A stretch of 48,003 nt of DNA, taken from contig CAZTRC010000003.1 of the NCBI GenBank assembly GCA_964615845.1, positions 1 to 48,003 on the forward strand, read 5' to 3'. This document shows, piece after piece, positions 9,988 to 40,247 of the stretch. The stretch comes from an uncultured Candidatus Saccharibacteria bacterium (GTDB lineage: Bacteria > Patescibacteriota > Minisyncoccia > Phycocordibacterales > CSBR16-119). Numbering within the stretch: position 1 is the first letter of the stretch; each line of letters opens with the position of its first letter. The position numbers and the translations under genes were made by a program. Under the pieces are notes generated by a model, which made no database searches, was not told where the DNA came from, and saw only the letters and a list, made by a program, of their open reading frames with translations.

Positions 9988-10128
9988 TAATTTATCGCTA
10001 CACAAATATCATTTTTCAAAAAGACCGGAATATTTTTTCTGATTCAAGTCAATGAAAAAATTTCCTCCGACTCGTCCTACGGACTCCGTCGAGCCTTTTT
10101 GAAAAATATATTTGTTCCGCTTCGCTTT

Positions 10129-10779
10129 ATGCAAAATAAATTACCTGAAAACATAATTCTCGTCGACAAGCCCAAGGGTATCACCAGTTTTGATGTTATT
10201 CGCCGTTTGCGCAAAGAACTTGGGATAAAGAAAATGGGCCACGCCGGGACGCTTGATCCACTTGCGAGCGGTCTCATGATTATCGGCATCAATGACGGAA
10301 CAAAGAAAATGGAGCAATTCCTAAAACTTGATAAGACGTATATTGCCGAAATTTTGCTCGGGACCAAAACGACAACGGGCGATCTCGAGGGCGAAGTTTT
10401 GGAACTCCGTGAGATTTTTGATTTAGAAGAAGATTATGTGAGGGAAGTGGTAGAGAATTTCAAAGGCATTTTCGAAATCGCTGTGCCGAAACATTCGGCT
10501 ATCAAGCGCGGCGGCAAACCGCTCTACGAATACGCTCGCGAAAATATCGAGATCGAAATCCCGAAAAAACCGATGCAAGTTTACAAGAGCAAATTTCGGG
10601 GCTTGAAAAAAGAAGGCGAAGGTTACCTTTTGAAAGTCGAATTTGATGTCGCAAGCGGTGTCTACATCCGCTCGCTTGCCGAATATCTGGGAGAATTCCT
10701 CGATGTGCCAGCAACGCTAGCGGGACTCCAAAGGACCAAAATAGGGGAATTCTCGCTCAAAAAAGCCCGTAAAATATAG
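10129..10779 (+). CDS. truB: tRNA pseudouridine-55 synthase TruB
   Basis: ILVDKPKGITSFDVIRRLRKELGIKKMGHAGTLDPLASGLMIIG contains the catalytic Asp motif. The track ORF starts at a TTG at 10099, but the ATG at 10129 is preferred. Confidence 0.92.
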   Translation: MQNKLPENIILVDKPKGITSFDVIRRLRKELGIKKMGHAGTLDPLASGLMIIGINDGTKKMEQFLKLDKTYIAEILLGTKTTTGDLEGEVLELREIFDLEEDYVREVVENFKGIFEIAVPKHSAIKRGGKPLYEYARENIEIEIPKKPMQVYKSKFRGLKKEGEGYLLKVEFDVASGVYIRSLAEYLGEFLDVPATLAGLQRTKIGEFSLKKARKI

Positions 10780-10894
10780 GTTTTTGGGCTATTGCCCGCC
10801 ATTGACTTTTATATCCTTTTGTGATACTATATACCCAAACGAGTGCGCCCTTTGACACTTGTTGAACCAACAACAGAAACCAAACACCTCACGC

Positions 10895-11923
10895 ATGAAA
10901 TCGTTCCAACCCTTCCTCGCGATCTGCACGATCGCTGTGTGTGCCGCTGTCAACGCTCAGACGGTGACTACCGTTAACGTGAGCAACCTCTACGGAGGAT
11001 ATGGTCATGTCAGGGACTCCTTGTCGTTCACGATTCGTATGAACGTGACCGATCTCGGGAACCAGACTTGCCTGGTCCGCAGTGTCGACGTTGATCCGTT
11101 CGGCACCTGGACTGATCCGATCCAAGACGTTGCGTTGAGTACCGTACCCCTCGGCATCCACGAGTTCAACGTTCCGTTGACCTCCGGGGCAGTCAGTTAC
11201 GAACTCACCTTGCACTACCGCTACATCTCGGACCCAGATGGTCCAGGTGGCGCGAACGCGGGTGACGACATTCCCGGCTACCCGAAGATCATCTCTGATG
11301 TCCAGCCAAAAGCGAACCCGAACATCCACTTTGAGGAGTTCTGGATTATCGGCAATTACCTGCACATCGAGCTTGAGACCGGACGTTATGTGGATCCGCA
11401 GCCTGGTGGGACCGAGTTCTACGCGGACATCTTGTTCGATCTCCTCGACGACAATGGTTTCGTCGCCTGGAATGATCTGAGCAACGTGAATCCCGCTGGC
11501 TATCCAACGTTGACCAAGACGTATGATATCTGGTTGGGCTTGCTTCCGCCTGGTCTGTACTGTCCTCGGGCAAGGTTGCTCTACAGTCATGATGGTCCCG
11601 GTAACTCGTACGACTTCATCGACCATGTAGTGGACGAAACCGATCCGGTCTGCGATGACTGGGTTGGTATCTCCACCGACACCTCGGAGCTCACGGCAGA
11701 AGGTATGGGGGACATTTCCCTTTATCCGAATCCGACAAGCGACCAGATCAAACTCGGCAACCTCGAGATCAATAAGAACCTCGAGGTGTGCGATGCTAGG
11801 GGCCGCATGATCCGGACGTTGTTGCCAAGCGCTGCGAGCATCGCGCACGATGTCTCGGATCTGGCAGCAGGAATATACATGGTGAAGCAAGGCGGACGCA
11901 TCTGCCGGTTCAGCAAGACCTGA
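10895..11923 (+). CDS. secreted protein with a T9SS-type (Por_Secre_tail-like) C-terminal sorting domain
   Basis: The signal peptide is MKSFQPFLAICTIAVCAAVNAQ. The C-terminus, SLYPNPTSDQIKLGNL....LEVCDARGRMIRTL....HDVSDLAAGIYMVKQGGRICRFSKT, follows the YPNP...(I/V)xDxxGRxV...D(V/L)SxLxxGxY...K pattern. The gene is visibly GC-richer than truB and produces a 375-aa antisense shadow ORF. Confidence 0.7.
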   Translation: MKSFQPFLAICTIAVCAAVNAQTVTTVNVSNLYGGYGHVRDSLSFTIRMNVTDLGNQTCLVRSVDVDPFGTWTDPIQDVALSTVPLGIHEFNVPLTSGAVSYELTLHYRYISDPDGPGGANAGDDIPGYPKIISDVQPKANPNIHFEEFWIIGNYLHIELETGRYVDPQPGGTEFYADILFDLLDDNGFVAWNDLSNVNPAGYPTLTKTYDIWLGLLPPGLYCPRARLLYSHDGPGNSYDFIDHVVDETDPVCDDWVGISTDTSELTAEGMGDISLYPNPTSDQIKLGNLEINKNLEVCDARGRMIRTLLPSAASIAHDVSDLAAGIYMVKQGGRICRFSKT

Positions 11924-11950
11924 TCCAAGCCCTCCCCGGGCTTGGTGAAG

Positions 11951-11980
11951 AAAAGCCCCGCTACGGCGGGGTTTTTCATT
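11951..11980 (+). terminator. rho-independent terminator
   Basis: AAAAGCCCCGC-TACG-GCGGGGTTTTT. Confidence 0.85.
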
Positions 11981-11997
11981 TGTGATATAATTTCGCC

Positions 11998-13245
11998 ATG
12001 AATCAAAACAACCCATTTCAAAATTACTTGGACAACTTGGCGCGAGCGGGCGAGGCTCTGGGGCTCACTCCGGCCGAAATCGAAAAACTATCCGTACCGC
12101 AAAATATTATCCAGTCAGACCTCGTCATCAAAACTTCCAAAGGCGATGAGACATTTCCGGCCTATCGGGTGCAATTCAATAATGCGCGCGGACCATTCAA
12201 GGGCGGTATCAGATTCCATCCAGCGGCCGACCTTGATGAAGTGAAGGCTCTCGCGGCTCTCATGGCGGTTAAATGCGCTGTCGTTGGCATTCCTCTCGGC
12301 GGAGCCAAGGGCGGGGTGACCATAGATCCGAAGCAATATGGTGCTAAAGATTTGGAATTGGTCGCGCGCGCTTGGGCCCGCGCGATGCAGCCGCACATAG
12401 GGGTCGCCAAGGACATCCCAGCTCCGGACGTGTACACCAACAGCCAGACGATGGCGCACATTTTGGATGAGTATGAGCAGATTGTCGGACACGAAGAGTT
12501 TGGTGTCATCACCGGGAAGCCTCTCGAGCTCGGCGGATCACTTGGCAGGAATATCGCGACGGCTCAAGGCGGCATCTACGTCCTCTCTGAACTTTTACAA
12601 AATATGAATTTGCGTCCGGAGGACATGCGTGTCGCAGTCCAGGGTTTCGGTAATGCCGGTTATACTGCAGCGTCAATCCTCCACAACATGGATTACAAAA
12701 TCGTGGCGGTGTCGGACTCGTCCGGCGGCATTTATGCCGAGGGCGGGCTCGACCCCGAAGAACTCAATCGTTTCAAAGAAGAAGGCAAAAGTCTGTCAGA
12801 ATTTTCCAAAGATGGTTTCAAGAATATTACGAACGAAGAACTCCTCGTGTCTCCCTGCGATATCTTGATTCCAGCGGCGCTCGACAATCAGATTACCAAA
12901 GAAAATGCCGGAGATATCAAAGCGAAAATCGTGTTAGAGCTTGCCAACGGCCCGACGACTCCCGAAGCCGACGCAATTCTTTTCGAGAAAGGAATCACCC
13001 TCATTCCAGATGTCTTGGCCAATGCCGGCGGCGTCACGGTTTCGTATTTTGAGTGGGTTCAAAACAGGAGCGGCGACAGATGGAAAGAAACGGACGTTTT
13101 GCAAAAATTAAAAGATATCATGTCCGAGAGCTTCAAAGGCGTTTATGCTCTGGCCAAAGAGAAAAATATCGACTTGCGTCTCGGAGCTTTCTCCCTAGGT
13201 GTCAAAAGGATTGTTGACGCGATGAAATTGAGAGGACGGATATAA
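11998..13245 (+). CDS. gdhA: Glu/Leu/Phe/Val-family dehydrogenase, most likely glutamate dehydrogenase
   Basis: 415 aa. GPFKGGIRFHP is the catalytic Lys motif, GIPLGGAKGG is present, and the Rossmann motif is VQGFGNAG. Confidence 0.9.
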   Translation: MNQNNPFQNYLDNLARAGEALGLTPAEIEKLSVPQNIIQSDLVIKTSKGDETFPAYRVQFNNARGPFKGGIRFHPAADLDEVKALAALMAVKCAVVGIPLGGAKGGVTIDPKQYGAKDLELVARAWARAMQPHIGVAKDIPAPDVYTNSQTMAHILDEYEQIVGHEEFGVITGKPLELGGSLGRNIATAQGGIYVLSELLQNMNLRPEDMRVAVQGFGNAGYTAASILHNMDYKIVAVSDSSGGIYAEGGLDPEELNRFKEEGKSLSEFSKDGFKNITNEELLVSPCDILIPAALDNQITKENAGDIKAKIVLELANGPTTPEADAILFEKGITLIPDVLANAGGVTVSYFEWVQNRSGDRWKETDVLQKLKDIMSESFKGVYALAKEKNIDLRLGAFSLGVKRIVDAMKLRGRI

Positions 13246-39662: not shown

Positions 39663-40247
39663 TCAGTCGAGAGTCGCCATGATCATGTTCTGCGGTCCTT
39701 GGTCGTGTCCTCCCGGCGAATTGAATTGCCCGGAATAGAATTCGATCTGCACACTCTCTGGAGCGACAATCGAAAGTTTCGGAAACGGCGCCGAGCTATT
39801 CGGCAACAGGCGGGACAGGACTTCATGCTTGGTGCCGCATACTTCCACGCCTTGATCGGCCGCATACTTCGCTTCGTTTCGTGCACGCAGATCTTCCGTT
39901 GTTACTGATGTTGTCAGATCTTCTCGTGTCGTACCTATCGGCAGAAGCGTCAGGGTGCCGCCTTCGTAGCTGTAATCCCAGCCGCCTGGCCAGGTGACGG
40001 CGAAAGTCGGAAAACCTTCTTTCTTGGCTTCGAGATAGAAATCGAATCCGTAAGCGTGGTAGTCGGGTGCGCCATCGCGAGTGACATCGACGAAGTACAT
40101 CGTCCACAGATATCCAGCGAGATGCAGGTGTTTGCCGGATGTGTCGATAGGAGCCGCTTTGAGGCGATGTGTTGCTGGCAGGTCGGTTTGCGCATTCGTG
40201 TTGACGGCCAGGCACAAGGCGAGGCCGAAGAGCAGGGAAGTCTTCAT
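39663..40247 (-). CDS. secreted hypothetical protein (194 aa, GC-rich)
   Basis: The signal peptide MKTSLLFGLALCLAVNTNAQ is followed by T. There is a long antisense shadow ORF. No known domain. Confidence 0.65.
   Translation of the reverse strand: MKTSLLFGLALCLAVNTNAQTDLPATHRLKAAPIDTSGKHLHLAGYLWTMYFVDVTRDGAPDYHAYGFDFYLEAKKEGFPTFAVTWPGGWDYSYEGGTLTLLPIGTTREDLTTSVTTEDLRARNEAKYAADQGVEVCGTKHEVLSRLLPNSSAPFPKLSIVAPESVQIEFYSGQFNSPGGHDQGPQNMIMATLD

Follow-up and report, generated by a model that had tools for sequence, protein, structure and literature searches.

Gene organization at the truB-gdh locus

The window analyzed here is a stretch of 48,003 nucleotides from an uncultured Candidatus Saccharibacteria bacterium (contig CAZTRC010000003.1, positions 1 to 48,003; contig C3 of the source genome). 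Between truB and gdh, the glutamate dehydrogenase (GDH) gene, it carries a gene for a predicted secreted protein of 342 residues. Judged by profile searches and by a predicted structure, the tail of this protein is a genuine homologue of the type-A C-terminal domain (CTD) of cargo of the type IX secretion system (T9SS).

The coding sequence runs from 10895 to 11923 on the + strand, with the stop codon at 11921-11923. An open reading frame (ORF) at this position had been claimed in an earlier note on the same DNA and is present. Its assignment is based on the ORF listing, the CTD profile matches and the homologues. The same + strand frame has an alternative upstream start, a TTG at 10859. Because M1 of all homologues aligns with the ATG at 10895, this ATG is taken as the true start. 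The protein begins with a Sec/signal peptidase I (SPI) signal peptide, MKSFQPFLAICTIAVCAAVNA (10895-10957, +), for which a heuristic predictor places the cleavage between A21 and Q22. A lineage-specific, all-beta N-terminal region of about 250 residues follows (10958-11719, +; homologue alignment and AlphaFold2 model). The CTD itself, residues 276-342, is encoded at 11720-11920 (+) and reads YPNP ... D.RG..I ... AGIYMV ... RFSKT (hidden Markov models (HMMs), profile comparison and model).

On the left, the slot is flanked by truB (10099-10779, +; Pfam TruB_N) and on the right by gdh (11998-13245, +; Pfam ELFV_dehydrog). Both adjoin the CTD gene in relatives as well, with protein identities of 68-76% and 73-79%, respectively. 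Besides TruB and GDH, Pfam confirms SecA, DnaE, RNase HII and GyrA in the window, together with the lamin-tail-domain (LTD) protein that had been recognized among the neighbours.

The tail is a type-A CTD homologue

The Por secretion tail pattern that the earlier note had read in the last residues is borne out by HMM searches. Residues 276-331 match PF18962 (Por_Secre_tail) with 38.8 bits, for a gathering cut-off of 27, and the tail matches TIGR04183 with 30.9 bits, for a cut-off of 23. A search of the genome recovers this region as well. The domain forms the extreme C-terminus (276-342 of 342) of a protein with a predicted N-terminal Sec signal peptide.

We aligned 27 CTDs from this genome and related genomes of the candidate phyla radiation (CPR). 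Their mean identity is 26%, and P16, N17, P18, G41, G64 and Y66 are each kept in all of them or in at least 90%. These positions make up PNP in strand 1, the glycine ahead of strand 4 and the G.Y of strand 6; the last strand is basic. The tail of the 342-residue protein, which ends in RFSKT, has such a basic last strand. Known type-A CTDs include those of Flavobacterium johnsoniae cargo (8GLJ, 8GLK), Tannerella forsythia mirolase (8QB1) and Porphyromonas gingivalis PorZ (5M11) and RgpB (5HFS). Compared with solved CTDs, the CPR CTD profile matches the Por-domain lipase 7pzj (E 7e-14), the translocon-bound cargo CTDs of F. johnsoniae (8glj_D, 1e-10; 8glk_D, 3e-10), mirolase (3e-6), PorZ (1e-4) and RgpB (2e-3).

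In the AlphaFold model, the last 80 residues have a pLDDT of 88.7 and form seven strands. The CTD fold is described as a compact seven-stranded immunoglobulin (Ig)-like 3+4 beta-sandwich (PMC11285876). A Foldseek search with the CTD model returned the PorZ CTD first (template modelling (TM) score 0.71), the mirolase CTD in rank 3 (0.72/0.66) and the NucA CTD from a T9SS complex in rank 6 (0.63/0.67). Generic Ig-like domains of GH9 cellulases are ranked between and close behind these CTDs and score nearly as well. The nearest sequence matches outside the own family span the CTD alone, and the three that bear organism names come from Flavobacterium, Bacteroidales and Bacteroidia.

Taken together, the HMM scores, the motifs of the 27 CTDs, the profile matches to solved CTDs and the model with its Foldseek matches indicate that the tail is a real CTD. 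Like type-A CTDs, it scores above the family cut-offs, lies at the extreme C-terminus, has the PNP, G.Y and basic-tail motifs and is predicted to fold as a seven-stranded Ig-like sandwich. Unlike them, about half of the metagenomic members of the protein family have lost the PNP motif.

Host genome and search for a T9SS

The source genome comprises 659 kb in 45 contigs and is 97% complete, with 0.14% contamination. Genomes of relatives in the same order (more than 40 families) measure 0.5-1.1 Mb, and nearly all genomes listed in a sample of 400 from the phylum measure 0.5-1.2 Mb. None of 21 genomes (the own genome and relatives) yielded ribosomal protein uL30, versus 13 of 14 control genomes, Bacteroides included. 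Absence of uL30 was reportedly described as a CPR trait by Brown and colleagues in 2015. BamA/Omp85 (PF01103) gave no match at E<=1 in the own genome, and the control scored above the cut-off in 7 diderm genomes. From the small genomes and the absence of uL30 and BamA, we infer that the organism belongs to the Patescibacteria/CPR.

Six-frame HMM searches of the own genome gave no match at E<=1 for SprA, GldK, GldM, GldN or PorV. For GldL, only an 11-bit noise match was obtained. PorU yielded nothing beyond 18 bits, scored by the tail region of its model against an unrelated protein. SprA was also found in none of 20 genomes of the family. As a T9SS is missing from all 14 built-in control genomes, the SprA model was controlled separately on a Calditrichaeota and a Zixibacteria genome. 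Both of these genomes, from the Fibrobacterota-Chlorobiota-Bacteroidota (FCB) group, gave about 290 bits per segment and about 695 bits joined. The CPR host thus differs from the usual hosts of type-A CTDs, its genome having yielded no SprA, GldK/L/M/N, PorU, PorV or BamA and its family no SprA.

These results agree with the earlier description of a CPR-like context with neither T9SS nor outer membrane. The window shows no T9SS component, as had been remarked, and the search of the whole genome was likewise empty. We also considered whether the contig might belong to an FCB-group bacterium with a complete T9SS, and the genome resembles no such organism. With no T9SS and no BamA within reach of these HMM searches, the CTD cannot signal the crossing of the cell's own outer membrane.

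The protein that holds the PorU-tail match (G000:C17:204-1754, +) has 516 residues, a secretion signal with the junction SALA|AT and a C-terminal transmembrane anchor. The 18-bit match lies in its internal region, which may be an Ig-like module unrelated to sorting.

Conservation of the slot and distribution of the CTD

The slot between truB and gdh is filled in all 6 other genomes of the genus by a CTD-tailed protein of 320-350 residues. In one genome of a sister genus (G010), a CTD-tailed protein is encoded directly downstream of truB. In a database of 5.8 billion proteins, the only full-length relative first found is 35% identical and occurs in 6 independent metagenome contigs, from 5 Joint Genome Institute (JGI) samples and 1 Logan run. 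In all six, its place corresponds to that of the window gene, and the longer of these contigs show the order DnaE - RNase HII - TruB - [CTD protein] - GDH - DUF2914.

PF18962 was detected in all 19 other genomes of the family, with 1-4 matches each. Elsewhere in the order, 3 of 41 families have it, and the 400-genome phylum sample contains 14 genomes with it (about 3.5%). One of these 14 is a closed, one-contig genome of 1.0 Mb with 5 CTD matches.

A full HMMER search of 1.84 billion representative proteins with the N-terminal 250 residues alone retrieved just 18 relatives, all with the same architecture. They have 312-384 residues, except two short ones (154 and 222 residues) that are probably fragments. 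No ordinary Bacteroidota cargo appeared among the relatives of the N-terminal domain in this set. The protein is thus specific to the lineage and not a copy of a Bacteroidota cargo.

The tree of the CTDs is poorly resolved and has too few columns to tell one origin from several. The CTDs of the family form a few blocks that correspond to paralogue families, with occasional outside mixing at most; the starred branches force at least two changes.

In two genomes from other families of the order (L017 of G055 and L018 of G037), the CTDs start with YPNPFNPTTTIEF, unlike the YPNPt.d..ti of the family, and they group together in the CTD tree (98/93). CTD starts of the YPNPFNPTTTIEF type are common in FCB phyla other than Bacteroidota. 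The distinct start and the joint clustering suggest a separate acquisition in those CPR families.

Allele divergence and selection

Across the genus, neighbouring genes encode proteins that are 68-82% identical, versus 24-36% for the slot protein. GDH reaches 73-79% where the slot protein shows these low values of 24-36%. G005 and G006, the closest pair, have slot proteins that are 93-97% identical, with 92.8% for GDH. Here the N-terminal part has a ratio of nonsynonymous to synonymous substitution rates (dN/dS) of 0.05 and the CTD one of 0.06; in another pair, the values are 0.13 and 0.24. These low ratios show that the N-terminal part and the CTD are both under purifying selection.

We also considered a steadily hypervariable gene. 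This was rejected, as the slot protein of the closest pair is as conserved as GDH and its dN/dS is 0.05. The large jumps between species look like the replacement of old, divergent alleles within conserved flanks, not like the product of a steady fast clock.

Loci for variable surface proteins between housekeeping flanks are known, such as the allele slots of pilins, surface-layer (S-layer) proteins and O antigens. The truB-gdh slot resembles them in having flanks that are 68-82% identical around a protein that is 24-36% identical, yet with a low dN/dS (0.05) and, in the closest pair, a slot protein whose identity equals that of its neighbours. It differs from them in consisting of a single small gene.

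Base composition

The gene stands out by its composition, as had been noticed. Its GC content is 0.551 (97th percentile) and its GC at third codon positions (GC3) is 0.696 (99th percentile) among 586 called genes. A second CTD gene, on contig C7, has a GC3 of 0.698, and the two CTD genes rank 4th and 6th of the 586. Orthologues show the same bias. The metagenomic orthologue L003:10001-11029 has a GC3 of 0.633, versus 0.31-0.46 for its neighbours, and the genus orthologues (L021-L025) have values of 0.64-0.70. In every examined genome of the genus, the GC3 of the slot gene exceeds that of its neighbours by 0.12-0.3. No such GC-richness is seen in CTD genes from two further genera of the family.

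Comparison of the window with L003 indicates that synonymous sites are saturated. At four-fold sites of conserved residues, identity is 0.23-0.34, versus 0.24-0.27 expected from composition. A foreign composition that was simply inherited would be erased under such saturation, so something maintains the GC3 excess. The idea that the GC-richness marks foreign DNA was rejected on these grounds. Codon adaptation of a highly expressed gene is not supported either, as the GC3 of EF-Tu, EF-G and RpoB is only 0.55-0.57. Our guess is that GC-biased gene conversion, at a surface-protein locus that often recombines, upholds the GC3. We found no report of a GC3 excess maintained despite synonymous saturation.

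Signal peptide and N-terminal region

Cleavage sites of signal peptides were predicted with a home-made heuristic and not with SignalP. At the predicted site of the CTD protein, an alignment of 19 homologues shows A21 in all sequences and Q22 in at least 90%; in an alignment of 7 sequences, both are invariant. A glutamine directly after the predicted SPI site (A|Q, hereafter Gln+1) is present in 18 of 18 family members in the representative library and in every examined CPR CTD protein with a readable signal peptide. Genome-wide, this crude predictor finds Gln+1 at 14 of 50 predicted sites, with more seen by eye; about 30-45% of the predicted secreted proteins have it.

Gln+1 has been published as a Bacteroidetes-specific "Q-rule" that is coupled to glutaminyl cyclase, with a threshold above 48% (PMC5837995). 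The CPR protein family is like this secretome in that all its members have glutamine after the predicted SPI site. It is unlike it in that the genome yielded no glutaminyl cyclase of either known type: PF05096 reached 12 bits, below the cut-off, and PF04389 gave no match, whereas its control was positive in 14 of 14 genomes. The host, a CPR bacterium with a 0.66 Mb genome and no detected uL30, is also not a member of the Bacteroidota. We found no report of a Gln+1 habit in the absence of glutaminyl cyclase.

Gln+1 sites also include those of the proteins encoded at 39663-40247 (-) of the window, G000:C7:6940-10035 (-), G000:C7:24979-27120 (-) and G000:C35:2026-3144 (-), some of which are large low-GC proteins. 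As secreted proteins with no CTD also carry it, Gln+1 is a habit of the secretome of the lineage and not a mark of the CTD genes alone. Gln+1 as a sign of a Bacteroidota origin of the CTD genes is weakened by this, because many other secreted proteins, including large low-GC ones, share it.

The N-terminal region contains the conserved blocks HYRY..DPDG.G....GDD, NPAG and C...R..YSHDGPG.SDF, and the conserved cysteines C223 and C253. The full-length AlphaFold2 model is all-beta with a pLDDT of 63. It resembles tandem Ig/fibronectin type III (FN3) ectodomains of cell-surface receptors with TM scores of only 0.2-0.3, a generic similarity. The fold of the N-terminal region points to no specific function, since its matches do not go beyond such generic tandem Ig/FN3 arrangements. 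Searches of the CTD protein found no enzyme domains. In relatives, CPR CTD proteins with domains that Pfam recognizes carry adhesion-type modules: PKD, Big_9, He_PIG or TSP_3 (thrombospondin-type). The best reading of the 342-residue product, as far as architecture and model can tell, is a secreted or surface-exposed binding protein.

Possible role of the CTD

We hold it to be fairly probable that the CTD acts as a T9SS-independent module, for stabilising, retention or binding, on a variable surface protein that faces a host or phages. Most likely, an anciently acquired CTD was repurposed on this protein. A repurposed beta-sandwich tail was among the alternatives of the earlier note, and it is the one that the evidence favours. 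The protein would be exported by SecA/SecYEG, as its signal peptide suggests; a SecA gene lies in the window. SPI is predicted to cut after VNA, exposing Gln22, and the mature protein is predicted to form an extracellular string of beta-sandwich modules. Its last module is a true homologue of T9SS type-A CTDs, with no T9SS of the cell's own to serve. The gain of this module would be old and predate the divergence of the four genera of the family, with an FCB-group bacterium as the most probable source; such an ancient transfer is likely to be the ultimate origin of the CTD. Purifying selection would have kept it since, possibly as a folding or stabilising cap, for retention in the cell envelope or for binding. 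As a whole, the protein may serve in adhesion or as a variable factor of the cell surface, where it would probably meet a host cell or phages. Divergent alleles would be swapped in the fixed truB-gdh slot, probably by recombination through the conserved flanks. Such recombination may also explain the sustained high GC3.

Several points weigh against this interpretation. The absence of a T9SS is based on six-frame HMM searches of a 45-contig assembly, with a positive control for SprA only. The loss of PNP shows that conservation of the CTD is not uniform, though such a loss fits a relaxed constraint on a signal function. The conserved motifs are those common to T9SS cargo and would also suit continued recognition by a T9SS component. 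Finally, confidence in the N-terminal model is low (pLDDT 63), and a reading as an adhesin is drawn from the architecture only.

Two explanations of the GC-rich gene, both contemplated in the earlier note, have the gene order against them. Recent horizontal gain of the whole gene from a Bacteroidota neighbour would account for the high GC3 (0.696, 99th percentile) and for the Bacteroidota names of the nearest CTD matches. However, synteny of the slot extends across the genus and to independent metagenomes, with neighbours that are only 68-82% identical, and PF18962 occurs throughout the family (19 of 19 genomes). Moreover, the N-terminal relatives number only 18 among 1.84 billion representatives, all of one architecture. 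The L003 orthologue has kept a GC3 of 0.633, versus 0.31-0.46 for its neighbours, despite saturated four-fold sites, and the second CTD gene has a like GC3 of 0.698. We therefore regard recent transfer as very improbable. A chimeric assembly or binning contaminant, with a Bacteroidota fragment joined to a CPR contig, has a GC step at about 10.8 kb in its favour. The contigs are uniform in GC (0.42-0.49). Independent assemblies from 5 JGI samples, 1 Logan run and the 6 other genomes of the genus agree on the gene order, and the closed 1.0-Mb genome of the same phylum holds 5 CTD matches, which leaves a chimera a negligible chance.

The other alternatives let the CTD still be read as a signal. 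An unrecognised CPR pathway for export or anchoring, not homologous to the T9SS core, might read it, for example through a sortase-like enzyme or an S-layer docking site. This would fit a CTD that is under purifying selection, always forms the extreme C-terminus of proteins with signal peptides and is carried by 1-4 proteins per genome of the family. Yet no neighbouring gene is conserved with the CTD genes, which are single-gene units between housekeeping genes, and no PorU-like C25 peptidase was matched beyond the 18 bits to the tail of PorU. We consider such a pathway unlikely. It is also possible to imagine, though quite unlikely, that the CTD signals in trans: secreted CTD proteins would dock on, or be processed by, T9SS parts at the surface of an FCB or Bacteroidota host. 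Through the PorV shuttle or the PorU/PorV/PorQ/PorZ attachment complex, the CPR proteins would be tethered to the surface of the host and the epibiont with them, and the Gln+1 habit would belong to the same mimicry or to shared ancestry. PNP, G.Y and the basic C-terminus are kept in the 27 CPR CTDs at 26% mean identity, and their profile matches the translocon-bound CTDs 8glj_D and 8glk_D of F. johnsoniae. All family members whose signal peptide is readable have Gln+1, published as a Bacteroidetes-specific trait (PMC5837995). In addition, fixation of the CTD in one CPR family (19 of 19 genomes) and its rarity elsewhere in the phylum are as expected with a particular host range. On the other hand, there is no known host, the conserved motifs coincide with positions in the structural core of the fold, and Gln+1 is common on secreted proteins that lack a CTD and is thus a lineage habit. 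Exchange of CTDs works poorly even between two genera of Bacteroidota (PMC11285876), and known T9SS recognition is periplasmic, out of reach for the secreted proteins of an external cell. We are more doubtful still of host mimicry by CTD and Gln+1 in its full form, in which tethering to the host surface, perhaps covalent, would be the attachment device of the family and the truB-gdh alleles would track host strains.

The domain family of the tail is known, and what is new is its setting, namely a CTD that is fixed, selected and syntenic in a T9SS-less family described here as monoderm. A literature search for T9SS CTDs in CPR bacteria found none; one apparent match concerned SAR406. The T9SS CTD is treated as diagnostic for translocation across the outer membrane in Bacteroidota and relatives. 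Since a family of single-membrane bacteria in which no T9SS was found keeps it under selection, in fixed chromosomal places and on 1-4 secreted proteins per genome, the domain must have a function outside the known machinery, or one that is exerted on the machinery of another organism. Automated annotation as "T9SS cargo" is then unsafe beyond FCB genomes. Most CPR bacteria are obligate epibionts, and little is known of the factors by which they attach, which makes the CTD proteins candidate host-interface molecules.

Other CTD-like proteins and features around the gene

The second CTD-tailed secreted protein, encoded at G000:C7:2668-3669 (+; L002:700-1701), has 333 residues and the junction IQA|QA. 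Its PF18962 score of 21-24 bits is below the cut-off; it matches the profile of the target family from position 212 with an E value of 5e-17. The corresponding paralogue family is present across genera g1 and g2.

Another secreted protein of 302-313 residues is encoded at G000:C9:3434-4375 (+), with the junction SAFA|QEP and a GC3 of 0.67. Its C-terminus, ...DLYDAAGRMILS...GQVYIARL...KKILVSL, looks like a CTD with no PNP. It has no Pfam match, and comparison with the CPR CTD profile by hhalign gave a probability of only 9.9%.

Upstream of the CTD gene, a sigma-70-like promoter match (TTGACT-17-TACTAT, with TG ahead of the -10 hexamer) lies at 10802-10830 (+), 65 nucleotides 5' of the ATG. The earlier note had reported the same hexamers and spacing at 10822-10850; the match exists, 20 nucleotides further upstream. 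One promoter-like site was observed upstream of the gene, versus a mean of 0.8 in shuffled sequences, so this site is a consensus match only. A Shine-Dalgarno-like purine run is missing ahead of both the CTD gene's ATG (10877-10894) and that of gdh (11980-11997).

Downstream, the previously mentioned terminator was located at 11950-11977 (+), as a GC-rich, intrinsic-terminator-like hairpin with a 12-bp stem containing 7 GC pairs, followed by a T-rich tail. The 375-residue antisense ORF, already described as a shadow, extends from 10889 to 12016 on the - strand. It is not a gene, as codon-usage scoring preferred the + frame and the homologues match the + strand product.

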